A stretch of 64,000 nt of DNA from Blasia pusilla (lineage: Eukaryota). The stretch spans positions 20,274,001 to 20,338,000 of the forward strand of contig CM114271.1 of the NCBI GenBank assembly GCA_050084515.1. Reading direction: 5' to 3'. The translations under genes and the position numbers were made by a program. Below, piece after piece: positions 5,865 through 62,897 of the stretch. Each line of letters begins with the position of its first letter. Positions within the stretch are counted from its first letter, which is position 1. The notes below the pieces were generated by a model. It had not been told where the DNA came from. It was given only the letters and a program-made list of their open reading frames with translations, and did no database searches.

Positions 5865-5865
<1 letters not shown>

Positions 5866-5880
5866 CAAAGAGAGAATGAG
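5865..5880 (+). promoter_or_regulatory. self-complementary primer-binding site of copy 1
   Basis: ACAAAGAGAGAATGAG is the exact reverse complement of CTCATTCTCTCTTTGT at 14916-14931, ~28 nt downstream of a TATA-like site in repeat A. The A1 copy at 5683-5698 has two mismatches. No TGG-type tRNA PBS is present. Confidence 0.75.
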
Positions 5881-14118: not shown

Positions 14119-14259
14119 CATTGTATGTTGTGTGGTTCTGCCCGTGGTGCGGCCATGATGCTAGTCTGTGATGGATGTTCGAGAGGTAGGCATATGGCAT
14201 GTCTGACGCCATCTCTCACTAGGGTTCCTCGGGGACGATGGATGTGTCCCAGATGTACA
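14119..14259 (+). other. PHD finger (C4HC3) at integrase C-terminus, copy 1
   Basis: CMLC-x11-CDGC-x4-H-x2-C-LTPSLTRVPRGRWM-CPRC, followed by one residue and a stop. Confidence 0.88.
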
Positions 14260-14448
14260 TAGAGGAGATACTAGGTAGGTTTCGATTTCGACTTGTTCTG
14301 TGACATGGATGACAGGAAGGCGACAAATGATGAGGCCACATGAGCACCCGGCCTTCTTGCTCTTAGCATCCGAGAGATGTGTGTTATGGTAGGTAAGGAT
14401 TGATGGCTATATGGAGTTAGAGGGACCTAACCACCAGCTAGGGGGGCG

Positions 14449-15220: not shown

Positions 15221-16949
15221 ACTACTAGGTGCGATTGAGCCATTTTAGGTTCCTAGACTATAAAGGAAGTTTGTTCCAAATCTTGAAAGAATTTTCAATG
15301 TTGGGGAGTGAGGGGTGAGGTCACTCTCTAACCCTATATAGAAATAAAGAGGTTGAGGGGGAATCCAAGACCAAGACTCGAGAGAAGTAAGGTTGGTTGA
15401 ACCAAAACGTGGCTAATATGAGTGTGTTTGGATGTAGATCAACCATGTGAGTGTGACTTGTTGAACCTAATCATTCTTCTATGATTTCTTTACGACTTAG
15501 TTATGACGGTCTTGCGAGTTGTTTGAGAGTGCTTTGCAAGTAATTTTTTTGGGACTACTTGGACTTGGAAGGATCCGCAAATGACTCGTATAGATGGGAA
15601 AAAGTCAAGAGTCACTTATGAGCATCTAAGGAACATTTTGTGATTAAACTATGACTGAATTGCTAAGGTAAGAAATCAAACAAGTGGTCTCGCTATCGAT
15701 GTGATGGTGTAAATAACCAAATAAAGATGATAGTTTTTAGCCTCACATAGCAAAGCCTTCATGAGTGTGTGCTCATGCAACAAGTGCCTACAACACAAAG
15801 TTTTGAGATGTTATGAATAATGAGATGAAGGCCAAGAGTCTACATAGCGCCTCTTGGCTTCAAATCCTAAATGGATACATGAAGGATAGGGGATTGTAAC
15901 AGAAAGAATATGTAGCACATATAGAGTAAGGCACAAGTGGGCTTTCATGAGTACCATCTCTAACTCAAGATGGATCATCTAGGAAAATTTCACAATAATT
16001 CTATAATTGTTGAAGAATGATACTAATGGGGGTTTCGAATATTGAACAACTTGATGAAGGGTAGATCTAGAGGGATAAAAATAGAGTGACATGAATGTGT
16101 CTTGTGACATCCAATAAATCATCTTTATATTGATTCCATAATCTCTACTCCAACATTATATGCCTTCTCCTCTCAAAATTATAATTTATCTATGTATACA
16201 CTTGCCCCAACTCTTAGAGGGGGTATATGAGGAATATGCATGCATAGTGGATCCTTCCATCCTAGTAGTTAATGATGGTCTACATAAAAGCATTTCTACC
16301 CTTATGATGTGTAGAAGTAAGTCTTGTCTCTCTTTGGATTATGTCATTTTAAAACACTTGTGTGCACTCGTCCCATGCGTTGGATTATTAAGGACCTTGT
16401 AGTCATATCCAATACTATCCACATAAAAATACGAGTGTAAGCTTGTGCGATGCACAAGTTGAAATTACCTCTCAGAATTAACTCTCAAGTGTCACTTTAA
16501 GTAAATTTTGAATGATCCTATTGGTCGAGAAGATGAACGATTCTATTGCCTAGAAGTGCCACATATAAAGAAGAGAGGAGTTTGCAAAATGAATGACACA
16601 CTCTCCAATAATAATAGATTGTATCCTACATGACAAGAGTAGCCTAAGCCCGTGTGATGCAAGAGTTTATTTTCAATCAATTTTGAGGTATCCTATTGGT
16701 TTAGAAGGCAAGTGATTCCTATTTGCGGTGTATTTCCAAGTGCCAAGTGTTAAGAGGAGAGGAGTTTGCAAAATGAAAAGGCACTCTCCAATAACCAATG
16801 TGCGGCCTTGAGAGGGGGGAATTTGAGAGGACAATTAATTATTATACTCGTGTGAAGGACACGAGGATAGGCTGGATAGTGAGAAAAATAAACCAAGTGC
16901 ATGTAAAGGCCATAAAAATATAGATAAGGGTATGGAACATATAGAAGTT

Positions 16950-19900: not shown

Positions 19901-21150
19901 TCAAAGAACAAGCCAAAATTGGCCATAGAGAGCAAACTACACAACTTTTCTTCACTAATTGCACTCTCCTCCATTAACATTGTAGAAGCTTAGAATGTTA
20001 GAATCAAATGATTTTGGATGTGTTGGAAAGCTCTCAACGAGCTCTACTCGATGGTGAGAACTAGCCGTTTGTATCGTTCTAACCAACGCGGATCCAAATT
20101 TCTGAATCGACCAGAAAAGCCCTAAAACATGCCTCCAAAGTTTTATCATCGTCACAATTCCACTTGCAATCTTCTACCATTGAACTGTGAGTGAAATTTC
20201 TTTGCCCAAAACTGAAAATTTTCCTTCTCTTGCCTCTCTTCTTTATTCAAACATCAAGAATTTAGATTGATGTTCTCCTACCGCTTTGATACCATGTAGA
20301 AAATTGTTAAACAAGCATAATTGATGCGATACAACTCCACGACAACTATCACGTCTTTTAGGATATATCGGTGAGATGTAGTAGAGCGCCTTCGTGAGTA
20401 GTGGAGGACAGGCTTAGTAGGTTGAGGATGACTTGCTGAGGTCCTGAAAAACTTGAGAGAGTAGGTTTCCCCTTCGTTTCGGCTCATTTGGGTGAGAGGG
20501 GTATACCTCAAGGGAGAGAGCTTGAGAGCTCATTCTCTCTTTGTTGAACCTCTTGGCATGAGGCGGCGGAGCTATGGTCCCTTGCCTTGTGAGTGTAACC
20601 CAAGCCTCTCATTAGGAGAGTGGGTTTAGTTTGACATGAGAGAAAGTGCACACCTTTGAGAGCTATGGTGTAAGATGGTATAGAGAGATTGGATCTTACT
20701 TTATTAGAGATATTTTGGCACTTCTCGCCTTTGTGTATGGATGCCATGAGTTAGCATGGGATCGTGTGTGTTTGCGTGTGTGTTCGGTGACAGCGATGTA
20801 TATTGTGTAGCGATCTGTATGCGCACAACACATACACACACGCCACCATGGAAAATTTTTATAAGAGAATGAGTGAAGGTTCCCTTCTCAATTATACAGA
20901 GTATGTGCAATCAACCCTAACCTTAATTCTAACCATAGGCTCGAGTTATGTTAATTGTGATGAATTAACCCTAGTTAAGATTATCGCATTTAGTTAACTA
21001 ACCAAGATTAAGCTTTCCTATTTCATATGAGAACCAAATATAACAGTTCGTGTATCTAATGAGCTTGAATATAACTTAGTCTTTAATATCTACGACCTAC
21101 AACAACCAATTAATAAATTATTAGTTATATGCACAAGTAGGATTTCAACA
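16950..21150 (-). mobile_element. degenerate Ty1/copia element: 5' LTR, PBS, gag, integrase, partial RT
   Basis: LTR 21150-20295 (TG...CA on the minus strand), followed by iMet-type PBS TGGTATCAAAG (20294-20284). Gag-like ORF 19139-19447. Integrase-like segment reads QNGVVERKNRHIVE on the minus strand at ~18370-18410. RT-like remnants at 17000-17650. Truncated downstream. Confidence 0.8.
20347..20830 (+). mobile_element. solo A-B terminal unit of DNMT-gypsy family 1, inserted in the copia LTR
   Basis: Matches 14579-15220 with an internal deletion. Ends GCGCACAACA and is preceded by the junction remnant CACGACA-AC. Confidence 0.85.
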
Positions 21151-21601: not shown

Positions 21602-21916
21602 TATCACGTCTTTTAGGACAGATCAACGAGTATCCATGGGGCCTTTGAGGAGACTAGGGAATAACCTTAAGAGGTCAAGGGTAGCCTACATAGATCTAGT
21701 GCAACTTAAGAGAGTAGGTTTCCTCTTTGTTTTGGCTCATTTTGAGCTATATTGAGCAACTTGTTATTTTGGTAAGTTCCTATTAAGATTATAGTTTAAT
21801 TTCTACTTTTAGAAATAACCCTTTATCCCCTATTGCAGGTCAAGAGCCAAAGAGATAACTTGTGAGCACATGTTACTATGAAAAGAGCTTGGGGAGAGGG
21901 AGGAGGCCGGTGTACC

Positions 21917-22010
<94 letters not shown>

Positions 22011-22570
22011 TGGACCTCATTCTCTCAAGCTCTTTGTTGAACCTCTTTGGCATGAGGCATGAAGCTATGGTCATAATTTTGTTGTGAGCAGCCCAAGCTT
22101 CTTATTAGGAGGGTGGGTTTGGTTTGATATAAGAAAAAGATTGAGATTATGTACATGATTTGAGAGATCTTGATTTACAAAGAGAGAAGGTTTATAATGT
22201 GGGAGTTGTGAAGCGATAACTTGCTAGTCTTTCCTTGTGTTTTCATAAGGAAAATGTAAATTGGAGATTGGCTTTTCCACTCAACGGCTCATGGGAGTGC
22301 TCAGCGGAGCAAGAGATATTGATTTTTGTTATTTATAAGCCCATTTTTCGTGCATGAGAGATGTGCACGGTAACCATTCCTAATTTTGTGTAGGAACATA
22401 TTGAGTATGGGAACCAAGATCACCATGTTGGGGCTCTTGGGAGCACCCTTTAGGTTACTAGATTAATTTTTTATGTCTCTAGAGTTTTTTGTGGATGAAA
22501 TCATCGCAGAAGCCTTGTCAATTTTTTCGTAGAAGTTGAGGTGATAGGATATATGTCAATTGCCACCAAC
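21602..22570 (+). mobile_element. diverged 5' fragment (A repeat, PBS, 5' UTR) related to family 1
   Basis: Starts TATCACGTCTTTTAGG like 5275 and is collinear with 5275-6230. Contains a (GA)n expansion. Confidence 0.7.
21921..22007. repeat. (GA)n microsatellite
   Basis: Perfect GA run, expanded from the short GA tract in repeat A. Confidence 0.95.
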
Positions 22571-23147
22571 TTCAAATGGAAGGGACGATGAAGGATCTGA
22601 TTGGAGAACGGTATAGATCAAGAAGCTAATATGCACGTAAAGAAAAGCCATGCTGTCACATCTGAGTAGCCGATAGGCCGAGATCTATCGTGAATAGGGC
22701 GTAGGAGCCAGCGGACTATCTTGAGTGTTACTTTGTCCCACGCTGTCAGATGAGGTTGAGGATAGGTCCATTATGTTAGGAACGTCGTTTTTGACAACTT
22801 TCATGTTGAGGTCTTTCACAACCGGGTGACTTGTTGACCAGGTCACCCGCCCCTGGTAACCTGTGCGCGCGGGTTACCAAGGGGAGGGCTATTTTTAGGG
22901 GAAGAGCCTTTTGGCTCTTCCCAATCCTATATAAGAGAGAAAGATGGCTTTCTTAAGCCATCTTTCTCATGTTGGGCCGTTGGAGCACCTCCCTTGTATG
23001 TGTGTGAGATAGGACTAGGATGCTAGCGTCCGGATTCCTTGTTAGCACAGGATAGACGAGGCTCGATATGTCGATATGGATTGAGGAGTGGAGTTTTAGG
23101 CCGGGTGTGCCGTTTTTTCTGCTCTTTATTTTTACATGAGAAAGATG

Positions 23148-31444: not shown

Positions 31445-32199
31445 GGCAGTAGGTCATGTCAGAGAGATGTGATATTTTCTATCTGGAGTTGGGGGATCCA
31501 ACTCCAGATAGATTTTTACTACTCTTTATTTTTGTTGTGTGATCTCCATGTATATGTATGAGTTGATTTTTGTACATGTGTGGATCGACCCGTGTGTGGG
31601 GAAGATCGGTGTTGTGTGGTGTAGATGTGATTAGCGATGTATGTTGTGTAGCGATATGTATGCGCACGACAATGCGCATTGTCAATGATTGAGTGTAAAG
31701 TTATGGCCATTCTCAGAGGGTTGCCAAAGTCGTCATGTGAGGAGCAATTTTTTAATTTTCCTTAGTAATTCCTTAGTTTGGAGTAGAAAAGTCAAAAGTT
31801 TTGGGTTTGAGTGGAAACATGAGTGAAAACCTTTTATTAGAGGGAATATAATGAAAATATTTGAAGGATGTTGATCCAAAATTTTGGGGCTAGTGGAATA
31901 TGAACTAAATTTGAGATAATTTTAATGGGTTGATCCCTAGGTTGATCCTTTTTCAAGAGATTAGTGGAGTGGAAAAAAAAACAATCAAGATTGGCTCTTA
32001 AGGTTAAAATATATTCCTTGTGCACACATGGGTACCCATGTATGAAATGACATAACTATCGTTCACCATTCATTAATCATGTACCATTCAACCATCTTTG
32101 TATATTTTCTGATTGTCAAGCATCCAAATCTTCCATGGGCGCATAAGGGAGAGTTTGCAAGAGGCATTTACTCTCCTACATCATTTAATTAGTGTCACT

Positions 32200-34150
32200 C
32201 AAGAGATGATAGAGACCCATGTTGTCTAGGCATGTTATGGAATATTGGAGCGAGACCTGCGAAGATGGATGAGAGATATGACACATTTACATTGCATCTC
32301 ACCTACTTTGAGAGAACGTTTTTGAGTTTGTTGAGTGTAGTGAGCACAATATGATCAAAGAGAGTGTGGCAGCCTTGAGCTATGCAGGGAAGGTTCCACG
32401 AGTGTCTACAAGGGTAGCAACAAGTATCTCGAGAGAGGAGTATGGTAGTGCAAGCCTAGGAAGATTATCAAGAGCATGTGCCATATGCATAGAGACCTAT
32501 GCCATTAGATGCAAGTCAATAAAAACCAAGAGGTTTTTGTTATGCATGTGCTGAAGCCCATCATTAGTAGGATTACCCGTGGTAGGGTAGTGGACACTTG
32601 TGCCAAATTGTGGGAGTACATTGGCTCCCATCATGAGTGTTTTAGTGTGACCATTGTCAACGGTATGGTTACACTTGAGTAAGAATATGTAAGATGTTCT
32701 AGTTTATACCTTGAGCTACGTCCGGATCGAGTGCTAGCTAGAGAGGGAACTAGAGCGAGTTGGCGGTCCAAGTGGGGCAAGAGGTCATCCACAAGTGGTA
32801 CTGTAGGAAAACAAGGAGTTGGATATGTCCGTGGGGGATGTGGATATGCCCGTGGGGGAGGTAGAGTCCACCACCTAGATGAGTTGAGGGGGACTATGGG
32901 CATAAGGTTTGGATGGCTGCTCAAATAGAGCAATTATAACAAAAGATTGTAACGATGGCATTGAGATTATCAGATGTTGGGTCAAATGGATCGACCTCAT
33001 ATAGAGTAGCTAAGGATAAAGGGGATCCCAATTGGATGTGCAAGACTACGTAGATAGAGGTAATTGTTGTGGAGCAACCAAAAAGTTAGATCCATAGAGA
33101 GGTGAGGCAAGGAGACAAACCAAGCTTTCTCATTTATTTTCATTCTTCAAGGTGATGGATTCTGATTAGGGGTCCCAAAGGTTGGATGGTGTTCGTGTGA
33201 AGGTTGTCTTGACTATTATGATGGATCGACGAGATCTAGTAGAGCGCCTTCCAAGATACTGGAGAACAGCCTCATGAGGTCTAGATTCAGCTGGTGAGGG
33301 CATGAATTACCCGAGAGAGCAGGTTTCCCCTTTATTTAGGCTCATTTGGAGCCATATTGAGGAACATACTATTTCGGGTAAGTTACCATTTTTGGAATAA
33401 TTGACTGTCCACTTTGGGAAGTGGCCCTTGACCCGCTACAGTAGGTCAAGAGCCAAGGAGATGACCTGCAAGCATAGGTTACCGTATAGAGGGCTTGGGA
33501 GAGGGAAGAGGGTATACCTCCAAGAGAGAGAGCTTGAGAGCTCATTCTCTCTTTCTTGAACCTCTTGGCATGAGGCGGCAGAGCTATGGTTCTCCTTGCC
33601 TTGTGTGTGTAACCCAAGCCTCTCATTAGGAGAGTGTGTTTGGTTTGACATGAGAGAGAGTGCACATCATGGAGAGCTTGGTGTGAGACCTTGTTGTTGT
33701 GATGGAGAGATTTGATTGATTTAATTGGAGATATTATGGTTCTTCTTGTCTCGTTTTCTGGATGTCATGAGTTAGCATGGGATCATGTGTGTTTGTGTGT
33801 ATGTTCGGTGATAGCGATGTATGTTATGTAGCAATATGTATGCGTAGGACATGTGCCTATATGGGCTTCAAATAAGGGGCTTCGACGCTTAGCCGATGAG
33901 CACATGCTTATGGCATGGAGTGAGTTTTTTTGCACCAAACCGCGATGGGTCAGAGAAACCTAAGGTAGCAGGGAAGGCTATGATGTCACCCTTAAACACC
34001 ACACCGATTTGTAGTATATTCGAGAAGAGGGTATTGGATGTTGGATCTCCTTGGAAGGATCAACGGTTTGGTTGTTGTGTATAAGCAAGATTGCATGTAT
34101 AACAATACTTGTATATGGAGCCTCATGAGGTTCCAAGACGTATCTCACTT
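32200..34150 (+). mobile_element. old, heavily decayed internal fragment of the DNMT-gypsy family
   Basis: 32650-33150 is collinear with 8165-8700 (HCQRYGYT, GAGCTACGTCCGGATCGAG). 34020-34060 is a decayed EEGIRVLDLFGG. Interrupted by a solo A-B unit. Confidence 0.6.
33205..33851 (+). mobile_element. solo A-B terminal unit (family 1-related)
   Basis: TGTC...GACA, collinear with 14579-15220 including the A|B junction TTTAATTGGAGATA. No clear TSD. Confidence 0.8.
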
Positions 34151-36591: not shown

Positions 36592-36914
36592 CAATAAAAA
36601 TAAGAGTAAAACCAACACACACGGCCTAAAACTCCACTCATGTATCTACATCGGCATATCGAGCCTCATCCACTCCTTGTTATCAAGAAATTCGGACACT
36701 ACCACCATGATCACATCTCACACACAAGCAAGAGAGGTGCTCCAACGACCCAACATGAGAAAGATGGCTCGAGAAAGCCATCTTCCTCCTTTATATAGGT
36801 TTGGAAAGAGCCAAAAGGCTCTTCCCCTAAAAATAGCAATCCTCTTGGTAACCTATGGGCACAGGTTATCAAAGGCGGGTGACCTACTAAACAAGTCCCC
36901 AGTTGTCAAAGACT
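36592..36914 (-). mobile_element. fragment of family 2 repeat A
   Basis: Reverse complement of about 22810-23133. Confidence 0.8.
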
Positions 36915-36949: not shown

Positions 36950-38676
36950 GGTGTGACTTCATCGATTACTTGCTAAGATTGATGTTAGTAACTTAGGACT
37001 TAGCATAATACATACAAGCAATATGAGTAGCTTGACTAATAACCTCGTGTTTCATGCTCGAATAAAGCATGTTTATATGCACTATCACTTTATCAGATAG
37101 AAAATGCTTACACAAGAAATTGATCTTGTGTATATGGCAAAAAAATTGCAAACTTGTCACATATGAGTAGCCAATAGGCCGAGATCTATCGTGGATAGGG
37201 CGTAGGAGCCAATGGACTATCTTGAGTGTAACTTTGTCCCACGGTGTCGGATGAGGTTAAGGATAGTCCATTGTGTCAGGAACGTCGTTTCACACAACTT
37301 TCATGTTGAGATCTTTCATAGTCGGGCGACTTGTTGACCAGGTCACCCACCCCTGGTAACCTGTGCCCGTCAGGTTACCAAGGGGATAACTATTTTTAGG
37401 TGAAGAGCCTTTTGGCTCTTCCCAACCCTACATAAGAGAGGAAGATGGCTTTCCTAAGCCATCTTTCTCATGTTGGGCCGTTGGAGCACCTCTCTTGTAT
37501 GTGTTTGAGATAGGACTAGGGTGCTAGCGTCCGGATTCCTTGATAGCACAGGGTGGACGAGGCTCGATATGCCGATGTAGGTTAAGGAGTGGAGTTTTAG
37601 GCCGGGTGTGCCATTTTTACTACTCTTTATTTTTACATGAAAAAGATGTCAGGGGACTGGTGGGAATTCGTTGTTTGGAGGTAGGCAAGCGAGTTGCCTT
37701 GGTCGGGAGCCCCTGGAGACGCGTATGTTGCGGGTGTTGGTAATTTTTCTGTTCAGAAGGCCGTGGGCGGAAGCGCTGTACATTTTTCTCAGATTTTGCT
37801 AGTGCGGATTGACGGGGGACAGCAGCCGAGTGTAGTGTGTGGTGGGGCATCAAGTGTACGCGATTGAGGGTGTCGAGAGAGAGAAGAAAAGGGCAGGTTT
37901 GGGTCTTGCAGCCGCCGGGGGGTTATCAAGTAAATGCGGCTAGGTTAGGTCACGAAGGCTAGGTTTAGGGCGTAGAGGACGCGCGCGAACAGAGGACGGG
38001 CGCGAAAGGGCGGAAGGGCCACGAGCGTGAACAGGCGAACACCCCCCTCCCCTCGCATTTACTCCCCCTCCCTACGCGTTTAGTATCCCATAGGGGTGCG
38101 GACCGGAAGGCCCCCCGCATTTACTACCTTTTTTGCGAACGTGGTTGGATGGCAACGTGGTAGGGTTCAGGATGTGGTGACCATGTTAATAGGTTGGAGC
38201 TGCTTACGTAGTTAGGAGAGTTACATGGTTAGGGTGAAGATGGACCCTCTATATTGATGAGTTGACAACGGAGAGTTAGCTTTACAAAGATATTGTCTAA
38301 AGATAAGCTTGAGATGTTTAAAAACGATTTTGGTGTTAGAGATATCAATATATGCTTGAGGGGGAGTATCGAAGAATGAGTTATAGTCAAGCTCATCAAA
38401 CAGCCGAACTATTACATTTGGTATTCACATGAAGTAGGGAAGCTTAATCTTGGTTAGTTCGTTAAGTATGATTATCTGAACTAGGATTAGTTAACCACAG
38501 TTACTATAACTCAAGACTATGGTTAGCATTAGGGTTAGGGTTTCTTGTACATACCTTATATAATTGAGAAGGGGATCAGCCTCCACTCATTCTTTCATTG
38601 CAAAATTTCATTCTCCATGGTGGTGGTGTGTGAGAGCCGTATCACATCACTTATGCTCGTTTATCAATTTTCTGTA
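36950..38676 (+). mobile_element. Ty1/copia 3' remnant (RNase H, PPT, LTR), interrupted by a family 2 fragment
   Basis: RNase H-like sequence at 36950-37150 resumes at ~38280 and is similar to 51480-51750. PPT GAGGGGGAG at 38358-38366. LTR 38367 to ~38676 is similar to 49657-49975. Confidence 0.75.
37155..38279 (+). mobile_element. 5'-end fragment of DNMT-gypsy family 2 (A1, PBS, 5' UTR)
   Basis: Starts TGTCACATATGAGTAGCC, nearly identical to 22654-23147. PBS ACATGAAAAAGATG at 37635. The UTR at 38040-38130 matches the reverse complement of ~30945-31030. Confidence 0.85.
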
Positions 38677-49656: not shown

Positions 49657-52088
49657 TATTGAAGATTGAGTTGTATTCAAGCTCATCAGACACCCAAATT
49701 GCAACATCTTTAGTACTCACACGAAGTAGGAAAGCTTAATCTTGGTTAAGTTAGTTAAGCACCATTATCTTAACTAGGATTAGTTAAACTAAGTTAATCA
49801 TATTTAGTTTAACTCAAGACTATGGTTAGGATTTGGGTTGCTTGTATACACCCTATATAATTGAGAAGGGGATCAGCCTCCAACCATTCTCTCATTGCAA
49901 AATTTTGTTCTCCATGGTGGTGTATGTGAAAGAGTCGTATCCTATCAGTTATGCTTCTTTAGGGGTTTTTCTACATGGTATCAAAGTAATAGGAGAACAT
50001 CACTAAATATCCTTGGTATTTGAAGAGAGAAGAGAGATGCAAAAGAAGCCAAAATTCCTGTTTGGGAGAAGGAATTTTTTTTCAGAGCTTAGTGGCAGAA
50101 GATTTCAGATGGAGTTGTGATGGTGACAAAACTTTGGAGATGTTCTTTAAGGCTTTCCCGTTTGATTCTGAAATATGGGTCCGCATCGGTTAAAATGATG
50201 TCGAAGGCTAGTTCTAATCTCCTTGTAGATCTTGTCAAGAGCTTTCCAATGCATCCAAAACTGTTCAATTTTGACTTTTTAAGCTCCTGCAATAGCAATT
50301 TCACTATAGGAGAGTGCAATTAGTGAAGGAAAGTTATGCAATTTGCTCTCCAAAGGCGATTTTCGACTAGTTCTTCCGTGCCGTTGGTCAATTTTGTCAA
50401 AATTTAGGTCAATTTTTATGTATGAGTAGTCTATGATTCAATTGGAGTCGTGAAGAGCCTGAAATTATATTTTTGTGAGTAAAATCGTTCTTCATGAAAT
50501 ATTCCTCAACAACAATCACAAGCGCAAAGCTAGATAAGCAAAATTACTATGTCTGGAAGTTTTGCATGAAACAATTTCTCATGGATCAAGAACTATGGGA
50601 GCTTGTTACAAGTGATGAGACCAAACCAGAAGCTAGGGTGATTCAACAAACTTCAATATTAAACATACTTCCTGCCCAATCAACATCCGTGAATACTTGT
50701 AATTATAAACTCGGAGAAGGTTCAAATTGAATCCCGAATTGAATAAAGAATTTCACATACCGCATAATCCTCCTCGCAACATCAAGGTGAGGTTTTCGAG
50801 GTGCTTGCATAAATTGGCTCAATAGGCCAGCTGCATAGCTCAAGTTTGCTATGGTTATAGTCAGATAGATTAAACTTCCAACCATACGCTTGTACATATT
50901 AGAATCTACAAGCAACTCTCCTTCATCCACTCTTAGCTTCACACTATGGTCCAATGGTGTAGAGATTTGCTTACAAGCTGTCATACCATATTTTGAAAGC
51001 ACGTGAAGAGCATATTTTTGTTGCAATAATCACATACTCTTTCCAACCCTAATAAACTCAACACCAAGGAAGTACTTGAGTTCTCCCAAATCCTTCATAT
51101 CAAATTCTACCTATAACTTTAGCTTGATTTATTGTACCATATCTTTAGTAGTCCCAGTAATCAAGAGGTCGTCAACATACCCACATCTGGTTATTCATTT
51201 ACAAGGTTGCACAGAAACAGACAAGTGCTTCCTTGGGACGGATATGCTCGGCCCACACAGACATGTTTGTCCATAGGACGGACATAAGTCCGCGGACATG
51301 GACATGTCCACGGACAAGGAGATACTTTTTTCGTGTGTAACCTTGTTCATTTACCTTGGGAAGCGCACTTATAAGTTGTGCTTCAAAGAAGCAATCTATA
51401 GTTGCTTTATCTTCAACAGAGGTTGAGTTCAAAGGAGCAAGTACTGTTGCATTGTTAGGCCGTGTGGCTTCATTGATTACTTGTTGAGATTGGTGTTAGT
51501 AACTTAAGACCTATTGGAATATATGTAGATAATATTAGTAGCATCAAGCTTGCTAATAACCATGCATTTTGAGATGACAAAGCATTTTGAGATGCACTAC
51601 CATTTTATGATAGAGAAAATGTTTGCAGAAGAGATTGATCTTGTGTATCTAGGTACGTATAAATCAATAAATTGTTGATATCTTTACAAAGGTATTATCT
51701 AGAGATAAGTTTGAGATATGTAGAAACGATTTAGGTGTTAGAGATATCGATATGAGTTTGAGGGTGAGGGTGAGTATTGAAGACTAAGTTATAGTTAAGC
51801 TCATCAGACATCTGAACAAGTACATTTGGTACTCACACGATGTAGGAAAGCTTAATCTTGGTTAAGTTAGTTAAGCACAATTATCTTAACTAAGATTACT
51901 TAATCATAATTAGCCTAACTCAAGACTTTGGTTAGGATTAGGGTTAGGGTTGTTTGTACATACCCTATATAATTGAGAAGGGGACCAGCCTCCACTCATT
52001 CTCTCGTTGCAAAATATTTTCTCCATGATGGTGTGTAAGTGTGAGAGTCATATTCCATGAATTATGCTTCTTGAGTAGTTTTTCTACA
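49657..52088 (+). mobile_element. internally deleted and rearranged Ty1/copia element with both LTRs
   Basis: LTRs 49657-49975 and 51775-52088. PBS TGGTATCAAAG 49976-49986; PPT before 51775; flanks TTATT/TTCTT. Gag start KLDKQNYYVWKF (50494-50640). RT segment inverted (~50641-51180). RNase H SKKQSIVALSSTEVEF on +. Confidence 0.85.
51202..51345. mobile_element. hAT-type MITE
   Basis: Imperfect TIRs CAAGGTTGCACAGAAA / TTTCGTGTGTAACCTTG and a perfect 8-bp TSD TTCATTTA (51194-51201, 51346-51353). It splits the copia RNase H sequence. Confidence 0.85.
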
Positions 52089-52304
52089 TTCTTTGCTTCT
52101 TTCCCTTGACTTTGAGCTGACCTCAAAGGTTTGACTCTTACATCGTGAACATGCATGTCTCGCCTAGCGTTAGTCCTCTAGATGATTCTATTGCCATTCC
52201 TAGTCTCACAACAAGCTAGTCGAGATTTTGACTTTGGTGGGTCATAGAAAGGTCTTTCCTCGAGCCCATGATCGTGATTTAATTTATTTTGGATCTCCAC
52301 TAGC

Positions 52305-52728: not shown

Positions 52729-53949
52729 CCGCTTGCGTGAGCATCATAGACTTAGCTATTCGCAACGCTAGCACAATATATGCTTGATCCGACATATTGT
52801 AGTGCGTCTCCTTCCTAATCTCTTTTAGGACCATATATGTTGAATAAAGAAATATTCCATGCTGTCATGGTAGATGAGGCCTAGGGCGAGATAGTATCGA
52901 GGCCTTAGAGGGGTCTTGTACTTCCCTATTTTGAGAGTTCATATGTGACCTGCTCTTAGGAGGTGACCTATGAGTCTCGGTCATCCTTCCCTTTATGAGG
53001 AGTGGCAACCTTGGAGAGATTGACCTTCCCAACCATGTATGGCTCCACTTGGACCTATAGGGTCGGGGGTTAGTTGGAAGTTGGTCTAATGAGGGGACCA
53101 CATATGTAGTTGTTAGGGAGCTAGTAGGTGTGTACTATAGGTGGGTAGTGACCTACTAGGAGGGAGGTGAACTGTGTGTACATGTCACCCATGGAGGTGT
53201 CTAGGGGGGTATACCTCGCATGAGGCTCATTTGGAGCTCATCTCCTTAGGATCGCAGACCCTTTTTGGGATCCGTGATATGGCACGACTTGCATGTATCG
53301 AGCATGGATTCTCTCTGGCAGAGTGGGCTAAGAGTGATCAATAAAGAGATCACACATTTTGGGAATCCTTGTGCATATTTTTTCTTGCTGTTACACTAGT
53401 GTGTATCTAATTCACGAATATGGCTATTTGGATGAAGCATGGTTGATTGCAGATTTCATCAGAGCTTATAGTGCGTATTCAACTTTATATCCTAAGGAGA
53501 TATCGCGAGGACTTGGCAAGCTGTTGCTAATCCAGTTCAGCATAACTTTCAGGTCATCCATCCCAATTCTATTTCTCCAAAGTGTGCTTAATTGGAGAGT
53601 TCTTTTGCATGTTGTGTTACCAACACCCACAGGGAAGTGAACACTGACTGTTGCACACAAGGGAATTTATTCACTTACCTTGCTGCTTATGGAGATGTTT
53701 GAGGGGTGATTTTTGGGTGACACACATTGTGGATTAGTGCGTTGGTGAGTGCACGGCACTACCGCGACTATTGTTAAGAACTTGGTGGGATGGATGTATA
53801 CCACACTAGTCGGGAGTGACTTAGTTTTCAGGCTATTTCCCGCGTGTTGATCTCAAGTGAGATAAGTGGGGGCGTGTCCATAGTTTGGGCATTTTCTAGT
53901 GCAGAGCTAGTGGCTCGGGAGTGTGTCATAGTTGTTTGCAGGTTTCATC

Positions 53950-56900
53950 ATGGCGCATCCACAGAGTATTGGGGAGCGTGGTAGTGGTAGAGGTGGCGGA
54001 GGATTTACACAAAGTGGGGCTAGGTATTGAGGGTTTCCACATGAGGAACCACCTCAGTCGCTAGTTTTAGTTACTCCAGAGGTGATGTCAGCTTCTGAGT
54101 CACTCGAGAGGCCATAGAGTGTCGCGAGTGTCGCCAAGCCGTTGTTGTGGGACATGGATGATCGCGATACAGATGGGTTCATGAGGGGACCCCGAAAATT
54201 CAAAAGCATGGTAGGAACCATCGAGTTGGATGATTTTATGGAGAAGTTCGATAGTTGGTGCAATGCACAAAGGATGCGGAACCAATAGAGATTCGACCCC
54301 ATTATGGCGTGGAAGGGACTTGAGGCGGAGATCGAGGCGTGGAGACTATTTTGGTCTCCACGATATGTGTCCCTCATAGGGCGTGCGATGTATGATGTGG
54401 CGGCTGCAATAGCACCCACTAACCGTAGGGAGGAGATACTTGGAGGAGTTGTCGACCCGAGTCTTACGAGTGTGACCAGCCGAGTACCACTTGCGTTCAA
54501 CCCATTGGTTGAGTTCTTCTAAGAGTTGGGGAGGAACTATCAGGGAGTGAGGACCGACAAGTTGAAGTCGATTCATCAGTTTCAGCGGAGAGCGGGAGAG
54601 AGTCTTCGAGAGGCCTATGCACGGCTCTACGGTTGATTACAACAACTGAGGGTGTGACAGAGGAACAAGCGGTTCAGTTCTAGTATGCGATGCTAGACCG
54701 CGAGTTGCGGAAGAGAGTGCAAGATGCAACTCTCTTACATGTTGGTTTGCCTACTCTCAAGTCTGTATTTTTGTTGGCGGAAGGATTGAGCTGAACATAC
54801 TTGAGGAGAGAGTTTTGACGACAGGCGTGTCATCTTTGAGGGCGACGACACGAGTGACGGTGTCTTGATCAGTGCCGCAACCCACTACTCGAGATAGAGT
54901 CATGGTACCGAGGGCTACGGGAGGATACCGCAAGCCAAGACCACGACCAGTTCAGTCATGCGCTGGGCAGCAGGGCTCAGGTATTTCTTGTTGGACGTGT
55001 GGAGGATCACATCCTCAGCAAGATTGTAGACAACAAAGTGGAGTGCAGGTAGCACCATCAGCTATATATGAGGCGGTCCAGGGGAGGCCACCCTTACCTC
55101 AGTGTGATCATTGCTAGAGATATGGGCGCACACATGAGAGATATTTCGAGCTCCACCCCAAGCTGCGCCTAAAGGGAGGTCGAGGACCTAGAGGTGGCAG
55201 AGGACGAGGTGTAGGAGGTCGAGGATGTGGTGGAGGCAGGACCCCACCTCCTGATCGAGTGCAACACTTGCATGAGAGGCAATGTTGGCGAGGATTGCTT
55301 AGTTGGAGCAAGGCCTTCAGGCTATGACGGCCCAGCAGGCATCTACATCAGGTGCAGGGGGCACGTCAACTTCCGGATGTGCTCAGACCCAGGATATGAT
55401 GGGAGATTTAGGAGGTATGGGATTTTTGTGCAGCATCGGAGAGGTGGATGCACATGCAGTGGTTACGAGAGGCGCGGTGAGAGCTTCTAAGCCACGAGGA
55501 TCCGATATGGAGTTGGATCCCCAGAGGGGAGAAGCTGGCAGATAGGCTAGACTTCCCCAGTCTTTCACATTGTCAGATGCTCTTCGGACCCCATCGATGG
55601 TCCCTAGACGGCCTTTGAGGAGTGTTGTTGTCGCACATGCTGATGCAGTTAGAGGAGTAGGTGAGGCGAATACGTCTACTAGGCCTACGTAGCATTCGAC
55701 ACGGACTAGTATTGGCACATTATGGGAGATGGCGATGGCTTTGTGTAGCGTCCCACTATTTACAGCCAGAGGTTTGTTGACATGTGGAGGTCGACCAAAT
55801 GATGTTTTTCGGTTGGCAGCGACGCTCTGTGAGAGCGAGGAGTTTGGTTCTTCTAGTGTTGAGACTCGCACAAGAGATGTGGCAGAGGTACCCTTGGAGC
55901 AGGTGCTCGGGATGAGGGCCACATAGAGTTGGCTTGCAGCAGTGGCTAGAGTGGAGGAGTTGCCAGCTAGACCAGCAATAGAGCATGCAACCTTCTCACC
56001 AGGAGTTGTTGTTGTCTTGGACAACCGAGATGGATTTTTCGAGTTGGTTGGTCCATTTGGAGTCGTTTATCCACCGCAGAGAGTGCTACTTGATTCAAGA
56101 GCACAACCCCTTATGTTGGAGAAGGCGACATGTGTAGCGATGGGGTTGCGTAAGTGTGAGATCACTCCATGTCCATTCCAGATTCACACTTCACTGGGAG
56201 GCACATCCCGGACACAGTTCATGACTCGCGATAAGATTATAGTGAGGATTTAGCCCAATCATCTTACGGATAGTGCGATGGTGGGGACGCGAGCGGTTGT
56301 GACACTGGCCGAGTCTTATGATATTTTGGTAGGGGCTACCGTTTTGTATCCTCTAGGGTTCACACTTGAATTTTGGGAGGAGACAGCCTCCTATCAACCA
56401 GGTTGGCAGTCAGGTGAGGGACGAGCCAGTCATCTATCCATGCAGTGTGCAGAGAGACTTGATGGTTCACTCCGAGGGTCGACCACAACAGTTGCTCCTT
56501 ATTGTGGGATACTAAGTTGGCCTGGAGGTTTATTGGAGGGGAACACGGATGCACATCGAGGATATTCTTGTAGAGGATAGTCCTAAGGAGTGGCATGCGA
56601 TGACAAGCGTGGCTACATGGGGTGGCGATACTTCTTCAGCTTTGTGGGGAATGAGCATCGATTTGCAGAGGAGAGCAGATGAGCTTGTGAGGCATGTATG
56701 GAGCCGAGCCTATGCTCTAGAGCAAGATGGGACAGAGTTACCACGTGCTCTTGGAGTGGAGACGTTGACACCCTTGGACACCACATCGACTGTGTGGCAG
56801 TATCTCGAGGAGGGTGTGCGTATACTAGATCTCTTTGGAGGGATTAGTACAGCGTTGGCTGCACTGTTGTAGGTCAGAGTACGAGTACAACAGTACTTGT

Positions 56901-59900
56901 ATGTGGAGAGGGATGAGACTACATGTAGAGTCTCATTACATGATGTGTTGAGACTAGTCCAACAATATCCTCACTTATTGCCAGTGTCTGCAATCAGGGG
57001 ATATCAACATGTATTGCCCGGCGACATTTTTTTGTTGGGGGTGCCAGATTTGGATAGGGTTGGTCCGATACACTTGGTGGTGGCAGGGTGGCCATGTCAG
57101 GGTCATTCTTTGGCACGTTGGGGACTTGGTTTGCAGGACCCGAGGTTGGCCATATTTTGGGAGATGTTGCGAGTTCTTTGACACTTGCAAACTACCCATC
57201 AATGTTCTCCAACTTACATTTTGGAGAACTTCCCATTGTTAGGTGACACTTGAGCCCGAGTGATGGCAAATGTACATTAGGTGCGATCGTGGATAGGATT
57301 GGCGGTGTGTTGGATCGCACGCACACTGTCCAAGATTGTGGTGGACGAACCTTTTACCATCCGAGTTATTGAGACAGGCTTATGATGGAGTCTAGACACC
57401 ATCCCTACTTACAGTGGATGCAATCTTTGATCCAGGGCGGCGATCTCAGGTTGTTACTCGTGATGATGTACCACCGTTGGCAGTGGCCAATCGAGTGGGC
57501 CAGGAGAGGCCAATATTGCCTACGTTGGTGAGTTCTCCGGCATCTCATGCTTTTCGTCAAGGAGGACCAGGTATGATATGGGATGAGCAGGCACGTACAT
57601 TGGTGGAAGCTAACTTCAACGAACGAGAGCGAGCTATGGGGTTCTCTACAGGTACGACGGCGGTGCCTATGATGGCAAAGGCATCCCGCAGACAAGTATT
57701 GGGTCAGGCTTTGGACGTGAACTGTCTTACTTGGGTGTTCAATCTTGGTTTGGCTGAGCAGAAATGGATGCGAGAGGCATTTGTGACATTACGTCCACTT
57801 TGCAGCGTTGTGTCTACCGGGACGGGTGAGACACTAGCTAGGGGCGCGATGGTGATGGAGAGGCATCCATGGACTTCATGGGATATGTCATGAGAGCATA
57901 GAGAGATGGGAGTCCATTTCAATGATGCAAGACATAGTGGAGTTCCTAGAGAGTTGGTGTCTGAGTTGGGAGCGCATGTTGCTGCTCCAAAGGTTGCTAG
58001 TTAGCAACCACCACCCTCCTCTTCTCTAGAGGTCACGAGAGAGACTTGGGAGCCAGTGATTGGTCCTAGGTTGACAGGAGCGGAGAGGAGATCGGTGCTG
58101 CAGTTCTTGTGGAGATTTGGGAACCTTTTTGCATATAGTATGCACAACTTGGGTACATGAAAAGGTCTAGGTATTCGGATCAAGTTAGATAGTGATACTC
58201 CTATCTTTCGACGACCCTACAGGTATTCCGACATGGAGCGATCCTTGATTCAGAGTAGGAGTCGAGACTTGGCTAATGTTGGAATGGTGGAGAGATCACT
58301 TGGAGAGTATGCATCTGCCACAATTATGCCGGCAAAGAAGGACATGCATGGCCAATGGACCGATAGGCGGATGTGTGGGGATTATGGTCCTATCGATTGG
58401 CATACGAAGGCCGATCGCTATGCTATCCCTACTCTCGAGGAGATCTTTTATGCGGTGGGGCATGCAAGGATCTTCGATTTTTTGGATCTCCGTGCTGGCT
58501 ATCATTAGTTGCCCATCCGAGTGGAGGAGAGGGAGAAGACAAAATTTTGGTAGATAGATCCTTTCGGAAAGGATTTTTTGTACTAGTGGCAGTTCTTACC
58601 ATTTCGGTTGAAGAACGCCCTTGCGGGTTATCAGCAAGTTATGGATAGGATTTTGGATGGTTTGGATTATGCGAGATGTTACATCGATGACATTGTCATC
58701 TTCAGTGCCACGGTTGAGGAGCATGAGAAACATCTGGAGGAGGTGTTTCGAAGATTGTAGTTACATGAGCTGAAGTTACATCGAGGCAAGTGCAGGTTCT
58801 TCCATGACCAGATCAAGTACCTTGGACACACTATTTATCCGAGGGGTATTGGAGTTCAGGAAACGAAGGTGGAGGCTATAGTGCGCATTCCTTGCCCTAA
58901 AGATGTGAGTCGAGTTCAAGCTTTCATGGGATTGGCAAACTACTACCGACGGTACGTGAAGGGCTTTAGTGCGATTGCGAAGGCACTGACTTTCTTGACT
59001 AGGTTGGAGCAGGAGTGGTTTTGTGGAGATACAGCGAGCATTTCAGGAGCTCAAGGACAAGTTGACGTCCTCACCCATTTCGAGGAGACCTATGCGTGGT
59101 TGTCCGTTCCAGTTTCATACAAACTAGAGTATGTTGGGGTTAGGAGCGGTGCTCACTCACAGAGATGATGAGGTGAAGGAGTCCGTAGTGGCGTATGCGA
59201 GCCGCTCAAAAGACGTTGCGGATGTGAATTATAGTTCCTATGAGGGGAGTGCTTAGTTGCAGTGTGGGCAGTGGCCCATTTCAGATGTCATTTATTCAAG
59301 AAACCTTTCACGCTCATCACTGATCATCAGCCACTTAGATGGTTGATGGAGTGTGACAAGCTTACAAGGAAGCTTGCCAGATGGTCACTCTTGTTGCAAG
59401 AGTATGATTTTTAGGTTGTCCATTGCCCAAGACATCTAAACTAGGATGTAGAAAAGTTGAACCATAACCCAAGCACGAGCTAGAGCGATGCAACTGGAGC
59501 GTGGTGGCATGGTGAGAGTGATGAGGAGATAGTGTCGGGTTGGCACGCATATGCCTATTTGTGTCTATTGGCTATGTTAGGTCAGCAGGAGGCATCCACT
59601 CTAGGAGGGAGTTTGGATGGTGAGTCCTCACATCCAGATGCTAGTGAGGAGTCAACAGGGAATAGACACCTCCACAATGATGAGATGGTCTTGGAGTACC
59701 TACGTACTGGTGTCTTAGCAAGGACGGTGGGTGCTAGAGAGCGGGATCGAGTCCTACAATGAGCCAAGAGGTTCAGGTGGGAGGGGATGCATGTGCTTTG
59801 AGTTTGGGAGGATGGACAAGTGCGGATGGTGCCGCATCCTTCAAACCGAGCATGAGTCGTGAGACATGCTTACGAGGAGTTAGGACATTTTGGAGTCAAG

Positions 59901-61108
59901 CGTATGTATAGCTTGATTCAGATTTAGTATTGGTGGCGTAGTATGCAGATTGATATTTAGCAGTTTGTAGCCAGATGCATTGTATGAGATAGGATACGAG
60001 CATTGTTCAATGCTCCGACACCACACTTTCATCCTTTACCGATCATGGGATTAGGGTATCGCTGGAGTTTAGACTTTGCAAGACCTTTACCATTGATGGG
60101 ACGCCATAGTTGGTACGTGTTGGTCATGATGTAGCACTTCTCCAGTGGATTGAGTTGATAGCGTTGCCGGATAGGTCGAGTGAGGGAGCGGCTTATGCAT
60201 TTCTTGATAGAGTGCTTAGTCATTTTGACGCACCAGCACAGGTATTGACAGACCAGGGTACTGAGTTTAGGGGTGACTTTCAGGCCTTGTGTGATTAGGC
60301 ATTGATAGATCATTGTACGACTTCTCGAGATCATCCAGAGGCAGATGGTTTGGCAGAGAGAGTTGTGTAGTCGGTGAAGATAGGGTTGCGCAAGTATGGA
60401 CTGCAGAGAGGACACTCAGGAGATTGGGACATACAGTTTCCGTGGTTGGCAATGGATTACCGCTTTAGCCAGTAGGCATCCTTGGCATCATTTTCATCGT
60501 ATTTCTTACTCTATGGGAGAGAGCCAAAGTTACCGTCGTCGATTTGACGAGATGTGGTTAAGGCACTTGACCTCGATAATCCAGACGTATGGGTGCAAGC
60601 GTGTTCTTAGTGGGCTGAGCTCTTTCGGAGAGTCATGCCTATGGTGTTTGAGAATCTGGCTATCGCTCAGCATCGTGATACTCTCAATTACACGACTACG
60701 AGTGGAGGAGGCTATCGACCAAGGATTTGGAGATTCCATTGTGGTGATTATGTCTACCTACAGCAGACAACATCAAAGACATTGGACGCGACGACAGGAC
60801 ACACTATTTTGCGAGTATGAGAGATTTTACCTTCAGGAGTCCTTGTTTTAGAGGGTCGTGATGGCACCGTTTCGAAAGATCATTTGCGTAATTGTGCGCC
60901 ATGTCATCTTCTGAATGTGGATGGGAGGATTGATCCGAGCTTGGCAATTGTTCATGCAGACTTGAGATGCATGTTGTGTGGGTTTGCCAAAGGCGCAACC
61001 ACGACGCTAGTTTATGATGGGTGTTCTCAAGGATGGCATGTGTTGTGTTTGACGCCACCTCTTGACTTGGTTCCTCAGGGACGTTGAGTTTATCCCAGAT
61101 GTACATAG
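53950..61108 (+). pseudogene. gag-PR-DNMT-RT-RH-IN-PHD pseudogene of copy 3
   Basis: CWTCGGSHPQQDC; RVLLDSRAQP; VRILDLFGGIS...VAGWPCQGHS...ERERAMGF...RRQVLGQALD; DRRMCGDY; YIDD (~58680); VLTDQGTEF; CMLCGF...DGCSQGWHVLCLTPPL. Many stops. Confidence 0.9.
56807..57770 (+). pseudogene. DNMT3-like methyltransferase domain (copy 3)
   Basis: Motif I LDLFGGI, IV GWPCQG (~57087-57104), VI ILENF (~57220), VIII RLWWTNL, IX ERERAMGF, X RQVLGQA. Confidence 0.9.
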
Positions 61109-61284
61109 CTGTAATAGGTAAATACAAGATGACTCTTGATGTTATGGATTGCAAAAAGATGACTAACGATGGGGCGGCATAGCATCCGACCTTCTGATCT
61201 TAGCACCAAAAAGATGCATAATATTTAGACTTATTTTGTAAGCTATTTGGAGTTAGAGGGACCTAACTACCACCTAGGGGGGCG

Positions 61285-62147
61285 ATTGGGGTTGTCCAGT
61301 CGTTCATGATTAGAGATGATATGATTCATAGCTAGATGGATCTTAGACATGTGTGTGCATGAGAGCCGATGTATGTTGGCAGTGATGTGTATTCGCACGA
61401 CAGCTATCATGGTAGATGAGGTGTAGGGCGAGATAGTATCGAGGCCTTAGAGGGGTCCTGTACTTCCCTATTTGAGAGGTCATATGTGACCTACTCTTAG
61501 GAGGTGACCTACGAGTCTAGGTCACCCTTCCCTTTATGAGGAGTGGCAAGCTAAAAGAGGTTGACCTTCGCAACCATATATGGCTCCACTTGGACCTATA
61601 GGGTCGTGGGTTAGTTGGTAGTTGGTCTCATGAGGGGGCAACATATGTAGTTATTAGGGAGCTAGTAGGTGTGTACTATAGGTGGGCAGTGACCTGCTAG
61701 GAGGGAGGTGAACTGTGTGTACATGTCACCCATGGAGGTGTCCAAGGGGGTATACCTCGCATAAGGCTCATTTGGAGCTCATCTCCTTAGAATTGCGGAC
61801 TCTTTTTGGGATCCGTGATATAGCGCGGCTTGCATATATTGAGCCTGGATTCTCTCTGGAAGAGTGGGCTAGGATTGATCAATAAGGAGATCACACATTT
61901 TGGGAATCCTTGCGTATACTTTCTCTTGCTGTTACACTAGTGTGTATCTGATTCACGAATATAGTTGTTTGGATGAAGCACGGTTGATTGCAGATTTCAT
62001 CAGAGCTTACATTGCGTATTCAACTTAATATTGGGGTTGTCCAGTCGTTTATGTGTAGAGATGTTAGGATTCATAGCCAGATGGATCTTAGACATGTGTG
62101 TGCATGACAGCCGATGTATGATGGCAACGATGTGTATTCGCACGACA
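61285..62147 (+). repeat. 3' terminal block B1-gc-A2-B2 of copy 3
   Basis: B1 and B2 are 118-bp direct repeats. A2 repeats 52863-53488. Confidence 0.9.
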
Positions 62148-62821
62148 ATGCTTTATCTTGATGAATTTCCATTTTCTTGTATTAAAAATTGTAAAGATGT
62201 TTGTATGCTAACCCCAACTCTTCTCTTGTAGTTCTCAACACACTAACATCATAAATCTTTTCCCTCTTATAAGTATACTTCGGATTATCACCAACAACAA
62301 TTTCCAATCCACCTATTGATGAGATGGAGTTTGAAGAAACTTATACTCATATCTATATCATGTATTTTTTTTATTGAAGTGGAGAATATCTGCACAATTC
62401 TTCATCAGAAATCTATTCAGATGGGTCAAGGATGACTTTGAAATTCTAAGAAGAAGAGTAAGGAGAGTGAGTAGCTTATCCCCTATTTTGGGTTTATTTG
62501 TAGCTATTTTTATGAACTTACCATTTTGGGAAAGTTCCCTATTTTGGCTTATTTGAATTTCTATTTAAAAATTTTTTCTTAGTATGCATGCATCTGTCAT
62601 TGAAGATAGATTGAAAGTACGTTTAACCCAAAGAGATAGTTTAATTAACAACCCATTCTCTCTATATTCAATCTCTTAGATTCCATAAGGCAACGGATTT
62701 ATTGTGCTCCTTATTAATCTTGTGAATAACCCAAGGCTTTCACTATACGAGTAGCCTAAGGTTTGATTTGAAAATATTAGAGAGAGCTATGGAGTGTAAA
62801 TGCTTGTTAATTTAAGATTTT

Positions 62822-62823: not shown

Positions 62824-62897
<74 letters not shown>
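62824..62897. repeat. (GA)n microsatellite
   Basis: Perfect AG/GA run. Confidence 0.95.

Follow-up and report, generated by a model that had tools for sequence, protein, structure and literature searches.

Split-repeat retrotransposons of Blasia pusilla with a DDE integrase and a putative internal attachment site

On the circles of the bacterial IS3/IS911 and IS30 elements, a few bp of spacer separate the two abutted ends, which a DDE enzyme cuts and inserts. Retrotransposons of the DIRS order insert without target-site duplication. Among them, PAT, Ngaro and VIPER have split direct repeats (A1...B1A2B2) and a tyrosine recombinase, and their internal B1-A2 junction equals the two outer termini abutted (passages of PMC4157794). 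In this study, we analysed a 64,000-nt stretch of the liverwort Blasia pusilla (GCA_050084515.1, contig CM114271.1, positions 20,274,001 to 20,338,000 of the forward strand; hereafter the window), which is eukaryotic and plant-like and crowded with degraded retroelements whose frames are interrupted by stops. Two of these, element 1 and element 3, share the split layout and the abutment of termini with PAT, Ngaro and VIPER, but differ from the DIRS order in having a DDE integrase, TG...CA ends, 4-bp duplications, and a polypurine tract and primer site at the borders of the repeat. The 16-mer at their B1-A2 junction (hereafter P) is probably an internal attachment site, where the right integrase end (...CACGACA) and the left integrase end (TGTCAYG...) stand back to back across a 2-nt spacer. 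This arrangement suggests that insertion starts from a DNA copy whose ends have been joined, probably into a circle, instead of from the usual linear one.

Layout of the window elements and the junction P

Integrated copies had the order A1, internal region, polypurine tract, B1-A2, B2, with TG...CA termini. The joint between A2 and B2 is called J below. The features of element 1 are as follows.

5275-15220, + strand: element 1, whole span, readable end to end
5271-5274, + strand: left target-site duplication ACTA, identical to 15221-15224
5275-5865, + strand: A1, left terminus TGTCACG, with a TATA box and the presumed transcript start inside; 88-92% identical to A2
5866-5881, + strand: self-priming primer-binding site, 16 nt complementary to 14916-14931 in A2
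11645-14262, + strand: degraded pol (Pfam), broken by stops
11645-12013, + strand: reverse transcriptase (Pfam RVT_1, 1.9e-25)
12176-12616, + strand: RNase H (Pfam RT_RNaseH_2, 4.1e-28)
13018-13686, + strand: integrase HHCC and DDE core (Pfam Integrase_H2C2, 4.3e-13; rve, 2.1e-13)
within 13765-14262, + strand: PHD finger (Pfam PHD, 2.5e-11)
14440-14448, + strand: polypurine tract AGGGGGGCG, adjoining B1, read directly
14449-14576, + strand: B1, ending in the right-end CACGACA; 90.6% identical to B2
14570-14585, + strand: junction P, CACGACA-GT-TGTCACG (spacer GT), read directly and found by pattern search
14579-15092, + strand: A2, from alignment with A1
15093-15220, + strand: B2, from alignment with B1, abutting the end of A2 (J between 15092 and 15093); right terminus CACGACA
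15221-15224, + strand: right target-site duplication ACTA, identical to 5271-5274

Element 3 has the corresponding features.

52863-62147, + strand: element 3, whole span, readable end to end
52859-52862, + strand: left target-site duplication ATGC, identical to 62148-62151
52863-53488, + strand: A1, left terminus TGTCATG; 91.4% identical to 61403-62031
53489-53501, + strand: self-priming primer-binding site, 13 nt complementary to 53240-53252
61276-61284, + strand: polypurine tract AGGGGGGCG, adjoining B1, read directly
61285-61402, + strand: B1; 91.5% identical to 62030-62147
61396-61411, + strand: junction P, CACGACA-GC-TATCATG (spacer GC), read directly and found by pattern search
61405-62029, + strand: A2, from alignment with A1
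62030-62147, + strand: B2, from alignment with B1; right terminus CACGACA; J between 62029 and 62030
62148-62151, + strand: right target-site duplication ATGC, identical to 52859-52862

Repeat comparison found no B after A1 of element 1. In both window elements, and in four metagenome loci (see next) seen end to end, the 5' end consisted of A only and the 3' end of B-A-B. The half-sites of P recurred as the outer termini of elements 1 and 3 (TGTCACG or TGTCATG on the left, CACGACA on the right). Although A and B of element 1 could not be aligned with those of element 3, the layout was the same in both and thus represents a heritable design, not a single chance rearrangement.

Searching the window for CACGACANNTGTCACG with up to three mismatches gave nine matches, against a mean of 4.05 in shuffled sequence. 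Only three of them had zero to two mismatches: the two junctions listed above and CACGACA-AC-TATCACG at 20338-20353 (+ strand, read directly); the other six had three mismatches. These were the three strings of a preliminary description, which had placed them at exactly these positions. It had also considered all their differences from CACGACAGCTGTCGYG to be transitions, and every one was indeed C>T or G>A. Two of the strings were genuine B1-A2 junctions of full elements. The string at 20338, taken earlier for another such junction, proved to belong to a truncated copy in which just 7 nt of B1 and the spacer are left.

The pol region had the order reverse transcriptase, RNase H, HHCC, DDE and a C-terminal PHD finger (PF00628), as revealed by Pfam in the window frames and four intact relatives. 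Its best solved match was Ty3 Gag-Pol (7q5b, E 9.7e-92), and the catalytic D70, D130 and E165 were conserved in the integrase alignment. No tyrosine recombinase Pfam match was obtained in 14 window reading frames or in the four intact relatives, and rve was present. Thus the elements have the features of Ty3/gypsy (Metaviridae) retrotransposons: the pol order reverse transcriptase, RNase H, integrase (HHCC, DDE), TG...CA, a short duplication, a primer site and a polypurine tract. However, the primer site and polypurine tract here delimit a B-A repeat that is permuted relative to the integrated ends, and the Ty3/gypsy hallmark of two equal terminal long terminal repeats (LTRs) was not found in the integrated copies.

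A hairpin or cruciform role for P was considered as a separate matter. Four natural 36-nt stretches gave DNA folding energies of -2.2 to -4.2 kcal/mol, with z of -0.7 to +0.5 against shuffles. Since P folds no better than shuffled sequence, a structural role in single-stranded cDNA is unlikely.

Relatives, junction consensus and a Chlamydomonas element

With the integrase core (222 aa) as the query, 132 proteins were recovered at E <= 0.001. The 120 matches listed included liverworts (Calypogeia, Riccia, Marchantia), Sphagnum, Klebsormidium, Closterium, Chlamydomonas eustigma and Tetrabaena, and the PHD family was present in 85 of these 120. Ten of the same 120, Klebsormidium and Closterium included, also had a C-5 cytosine methylase (PF00145) between RNase H and integrase (P0022, P0045, P0052, P0069, P0092, P0094, P0095, P0103, P0115 and P0116).

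Copies beyond the window were taken from metagenome contigs of few samples. A scan with an alignment of 24 integrase relatives gave 79 loci at 50-78% identity. Their classes were called automatically, and five were corrected by hand.

25 loci (20 distinct after merging same-flank duplicates): long form, with polypurine tract, B1, P, A2...B2 and flank
4 loci (4 distinct): B1, P and A2, with the second B not reached or not found
21 loci (19 distinct): short form, with polypurine tract, B and flank only
8 loci: no B recognised
21 loci: integrase core followed by less than 900 bp of contig

Fifty of the 79 loci could be assessed, and 29 of these (24 distinct) had B1, P and A2. Together with the three window strings, the 24 loci made a set of 27 distinct junctions, with the consensus CACGACA-GC-TGTCATG. 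Base counts were C26 A27 C24 G25 A26 C23 A27 in the left arm, G15/A12 C16/T11 in the spacer and T27 G19/A8 T27 C26 A27 T23 G27 in the right arm, the CA and TG being best kept. The spacer was 2 nt long and purine-pyrimidine in 27/27, with no transversion (GC in 9, AC in 7, GT in 6 and AT in 5). The right arm was TGTCATG in 23/27 and TGTCACG in 3/27, the latter in the element 1 lineage. The preliminary description had proposed an ancestral palindrome centred on CAGCTG, with a right arm TGTCG(T/C)G. Two of the outcomes that it named as refuting, a non-palindromic consensus and a spacer of variable length, could be checked by sequence, and neither occurred: the many-copy consensus agreed with the palindromic centre, and the spacer length did not vary. 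However, the ancestral arm, and with it a perfect 7+7 palindrome, was not borne out: the fifth right-arm base was A in 27/27, so the arms pair at 6/7 positions, not 7 (5/7 in the lineage of element 1 and in L022, the relative nearest to it). As for the nicks 3' of both CAs suggested in the same description, the sequence does have the geometry by which they would leave 2-nt 5' overhangs. Across five families, conservation was limited to the 16-mer, the A and B flanks being unrelated and unalignable between families. In the 24 distinct metagenome loci, the motif followed the integrase core at a constant distance, which excludes its origin by chance.

Ten elements had both ends available. A perfect 4-bp target duplication was found in seven (element 1, element 3, L002, L039, L072, L006 and L025), a duplication with one mismatch in two (L075 and L013) and none in one (L055). 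The 4-bp targets looked A-rich, and TACA was used twice, at unrelated loci. As another observation, a unit of GTCACGACA plus 6 nt occurred once or twice in tandem in the right ends of L045, L065 and L072 (B1 and B2), and B1 and B2 of the same element may differ by one 15-nt unit.

A similar arrangement could be recognised in Chlamydomonas. Gypsy-7a_cRei (15.4 kb) made 86 new insertions in a laboratory strain and encodes a polyprotein with a PHD finger; according to the legend of Figure 6 in the same study, the final 8 bp of its right LTR are missing from the left LTR (PMC9940879, in part). In the accompanying repeat library, the internal part opens with a TGG-type primer site and ends ...GGGGCG GACCGACA GC, while the LTR starts with TGTGGGTG and ends in ...GTGACCGACA (PMC9940879). 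Judged from these sequences, and compared by layout, not by phylogeny, Gypsy-7a_cRei is of the same design, with a B of 8 bp and a putative P of GACCGACA-GC-TGTGGGTG centred on ACAGCTGT. Like the window family, the library entries of Gypsy-7a_cRei and Gypsy-7b_cRei have a polypurine tract, the 8-bp B, GC and a TG-LTR, with the same 8 bp again only at the right-LTR end, and a pol with a PHD finger. Unlike it, their B is 8 bp long against 116-180 bp, and their primer site is TGG-type (tRNA-like) instead of self-priming. In the same library, Gypsy-1_cRei is conventional (PMC9940879, in part). The passages on Gypsy-7a_cRei in PMC9940879 remark on the missing 8 bp and give no mechanism. The portion of that library covered here had no entry for TOC1 or REM1. 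No DDE-integrase element with split or permuted LTRs was found in literature searches, though descriptions of TOC1 and REM1 and most of the repeat library lay outside their coverage, so an earlier description is possible. In TOC1, Day et al. reportedly found a split-repeat layout in 1988.

Reverse transcription, the joint J and the proposed route of integration

The polypurine tract adjoined B1 in elements 1 and 3 and in 18/18 metagenome loci listed. At the other border, a primer site complementary to A (10-17 nt, starting 0-3 nt past the end of A) was present in 6/7 elements of the window and metagenome, four metagenome relatives sharing the arrangement of elements 1 and 3. The partner in A began 26-31 nt past a TATA, and four different sequence pairs kept the complementarity. 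In element 1, the partner at 14916-14931 began 28 nt past the TATA and 0/500 shuffles reached the 16-nt length; in element 3, the partner at 53240-53252 began 30 nt past it and 0/500 shuffles reached 13 nt. Self-priming has been described in Tf1/sushi and Tcn1 elements (PMC6317226, in part). As in Tf1/sushi, which also belong to Ty3/gypsy, the primer-binding site would pair with the 5' end of the RNA from the same element, the transcript start being presumed here (PMC6317226, in part). The window family differs from Tf1/sushi in the PHD finger, which takes the place of the C-terminal chromodomain of the integrase, and in the permuted repeat.

With the polypurine tract ahead of B1 and the primer site just behind A1, reverse transcription must yield a repeat of the order B-P-A. 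The linear cDNA is then (B-P-A)-internal-(B-P-A), and the genomic copy, A-internal-B-P-A-J-B, is its circular permutation. P lies inside the U3 part of the reverse-transcribed LTR, and J joins the end of U5 to the start of U3. The predicted cDNA tips lack TG and CA: B starts with ATT... or ATACATG..., and A ends in ...ACTTTA or ...TTCAAT. For the end beside the primer-binding site, the absence of CA had been pointed out before, and it was seen in elements 1 and 3 and in the sequences of their relatives.

Being absent from the RNA, J must be re-made in every cycle. In the elements whose A1 end, B1 start at the polypurine tract and A2-B2 joint were comparable, J consisted of the U5 end followed by the U3 start, with slop or microhomology amounting to 0-3 nt. 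The two abutted exactly in element 1 and in L075 and overlapped by 2-3 nt in L039 and in L072, while element 3 and L002 showed a substitution there. The largest family (f53) gives an example: of its 10 distinct members listed, five had TTCAAT on the A side of J and the other five, one or two bases longer or shorter, had TTCAATC, CAATTC, TTTCAA, TTTCAT or TTCA, with a constant B side in 10/10. J (e.g., between 15092 and 15093, or 62029 and 62030) was not palindromic; B has the palindrome at its opposite end. While J varies, P is part of the RNA and keeps an invariant spacing, a contrast which fits an origin of J by end-joining. Furthermore, the right-end B of an integrated copy can only derive from the left tip of the cDNA, which indicates that the tips were joined and that the integrase uses the internal CA and TG.

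We therefore propose the following route, which stays conditional at each step. The two cDNA ends would first be joined, for which a two-LTR circle is the simplest form. Next, the DDE integrase would nick 3' of both CAs at one internal palindrome, so that the molecule is linearised at P with 2-nt 5' overhangs, and would insert it with a 4-bp stagger. As the recognition ends are internal, erosion or untidy joining of the cDNA tips would affect J alone. There is precedent for such cleavage, since the integrases of prototype foamy virus and HIV-1 cut the palindrome formed by two abutted ends at the LTR-LTR junction (PMC1180852 and PMC1905944, both in part); in the window family a similar cut by the DDE integrase is what we infer. 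In retroviruses, it is the U5-U3 joint itself that forms the palindrome, and linear DNA is accepted as the main substrate. Here, by contrast, the U5-U3 joint J is not palindromic and the palindrome lies 8-180 bp inside U3, so the end-joined form appears to be obligatory. In the IS3/IS911 and IS30 elements, which are DNA transposons, the transposase produces the circle, while here a reverse transcript and host end-joining would give rise to the circle or joint.

Several observations weigh against this route. The whole case consists of dead genomic copies and one published consensus, from which cleavage is deduced. A two-LTR circle has two identical palindromes, and random choice between them predicts equal numbers of A-J-B-P-A...B and A...B-P-A-J-B. 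In fact, B was upstream of A in 0/11 distinct 5' ends (8 loci and 3 in the window), and six long forms against zero of the alternative form give p about 0.016 under equal odds; with a B of 116-180 bp, local sequence could not distinguish the two palindromes. The missing A-J-B-P-A...B form may reflect a directional choice of palindrome or its quick collapse by A x A deletion. Alternatively, it may be the linear cDNA that is broken, with the small B fragment taken along, or reverse transcriptase may extend the right end only.

The short forms are a further difficulty, as 19/39 distinct fully classified 3' ends (L006, L012-L015, L019, L025, L028, L033, L040, L042, L048, L049, L055, L057, L066, L067, L070 and L073) had no A2/B2 and hence no terminal repeat. 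Possible origins are B1 x B2 deletion, direct production and, for some, an artefact of assembly. Chimeric joins may be present in the metagenome contigs, which were derived from few samples. Two of them, L006 and L025, had perfect 4-bp duplications, both TACA. On trees, the short forms were interspersed with the long ones, and terminal branch lengths did not differ in f53 (14 long vs 9 short, p 0.51) or in f39, the family nearest the window integrase (5 long vs 9 short, p 0.24); by this measure, later deletion and direct insertion of short forms are not told apart. Direct short forms could arise if both palindromes of a linear cDNA were cut, or if a one-LTR circle were cut at its only palindrome. 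In one pair, long L009 (1-2713) and short L012 (38-2750) were 99.4% identical over 2713 bp, through the spacer AC plus T, and then fully divergent; B1 and B2 of L009 had 3 differences in the last 22 bases. The pair may represent two separate copies, or else a chimera created when the metagenome was assembled.

Other explanations were weighed against the same evidence. The integrase might act on linear cDNA, making a double-strand break at the palindrome of the left LTR, holding both new CA ends (those of the main body, which starts at A, and of the small detached B) in a single complex and inserting both, after which host end-joining would ligate the free U5 end to the free start of B and so make J. 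This gives the same product and the same untidy J without a free circle, and the 8-bp B of Gypsy-7a_cRei puts the palindrome 10 nt from the cDNA tip, near ordinary 3' processing (PMC9940879). We nevertheless regard it as unlikely. A break at the right-LTR palindrome would be equally possible and would give the A-J-B-P-A...B form, which was unseen; the chromosome would stay broken until repair; and the integrase must hold a separate 8-180-bp fragment through strand transfer, for which we know of no precedent.

Alternatively, reverse transcriptase itself could make the extra B, if the plus strand jumped end-to-end to the left end of the same or another cDNA, so that the integrase picks the left TG and the downstream CA of a tandem-LTR linear molecule. 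If only the plus strand jumped, extension of the right side alone would be accounted for, and the 2-3 nt microhomology at J in L039 and L072 is in line with it. But the minus strand could jump equally, B2 lies 3' of R so that J has no templated origin in the RNA, and joints without microhomology exist (L075 and element 1), which together make such a jump improbable.

P could also be a passive scar without a role in integration, the true LTR being A-J-B (TG...CA), with B1 and the spacer left over from a partial tandem LTR and the 5' LTR truncated. A2-J-B2 alone does resemble an ordinary LTR, and lone A-J-B blocks occur at 20347-20830 and 33205-33851. Against this, the same "truncation" would have to be assumed in 11/11 5' ends of five families, and likewise in Gypsy-7a_cRei; the polypurine tract precedes B1, not A2, and the primer site follows A1, not B; and conventional reverse transcription would equalise both LTRs in each cycle. 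This explanation is very improbable. Finally, mobility of the DIRS/PAT/Ngaro type, in which the split repeats serve a tyrosine recombinase that inserts a closed circle site-specifically, has in its favour the A1...B1A2B2 layout, a hallmark of PAT, Ngaro and VIPER (PMC4157794, in part), but is hardly conceivable for elements with a DDE integrase whose D, D and E are conserved, with TG...CA ends and 4-bp duplications at variable targets, and with no tyrosine recombinase domain in the window reading frames or four intact relatives.

Taking integration from the end-joined copy further, we tentatively suggest that a whole green-lineage clade of DDE-integrase retrotransposons (liverwort and moss-associated families, possibly with Gypsy-7a_cRei) may never integrate the linear transcript: the host would join the ends and the integrase would cut the internal palindrome of the circle, like an IS3-type transposase or a restriction enzyme. 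The model of a circle with two tandem LTRs as the precursor was abandoned for retroviruses, and these elements, if the suggestion is true, would be a natural case of it. They would also be the DDE counterpart of the DIRS/PAT split-repeat design and would link LTR elements, tyrosine-recombinase split repeats and bacterial IS circle junctions. With recognition ends inside the LTR, this would be a third way to integrate a reverse transcript by a retroviral-type integrase, and host end-joining would be part of every replication cycle. The published and unexplained lack of 8 bp in the left LTR of Gypsy-7a_cRei would be explained as well. Standard LTR finders are predicted to mis-bound or miss such elements, about half of the copies here having no terminal repeat. 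Because an active member exists in a laboratory alga (Chlamydomonas), the mechanism is directly testable.

Truncated copies and nested repeats of the window

Besides elements 1 and 3, the window holds the following pieces of such elements.

20338-20830, + strand: truncated copy, inserted within a different repeat family; retains the last 7 nt of B1 and the spacer AC, followed by A, J and B
21602-22176, + strand: A1 of element 2, a third and heavily nested element; left terminus TATCACG, no B upstream (repeat comparison)
31665-31671, + strand: end of a B (CACGACA) followed by unrelated DNA, that is, a 3' end without A2/B2 (short form; repeat comparison)
33205-33851, + strand: A-J-B block without B1 and without a matching duplication (flanks AGGT and TGTG; repeat comparison)

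The truncated copy interrupts the other repeat family at 20338-20834, for which an uninterrupted copy is present at about 49928-49932. Compared with three other copies of the interrupted repeat, the flanks at 20338 were ambiguous and gave no clear case for a solo copy with a duplication of its own; a deletion between CAC microhomologies would fit them. Copies of this family lie at 19868-21088, 38367-38663, 49657-50411 and 51775-52089, and a tRNA-Met-like primer site (TGGTATCAAAGC) was noticed on the minus strand near 20281-20300.

In the nest at 20.3-37.7 kb, which consists of element 2, a minus-strand relative and another LTR family, no clean insertions with matching duplications were found. 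The LTRs of the latter family (about 487 bp, TGTCATC...GTGACA) lie on the minus strand at 22654-23140 and 37155-37640 and are about 90% identical, with an inverted partial copy at 36595-36913. At 23140 the family interrupts the PHD region of the minus-strand relative, and at 22654 the 5' leader of element 2; its flanking 4-mers are unmatched. Long (AG)n microsatellites were observed at 21920-22005, inside A1 of element 2, and at 62824-62897.

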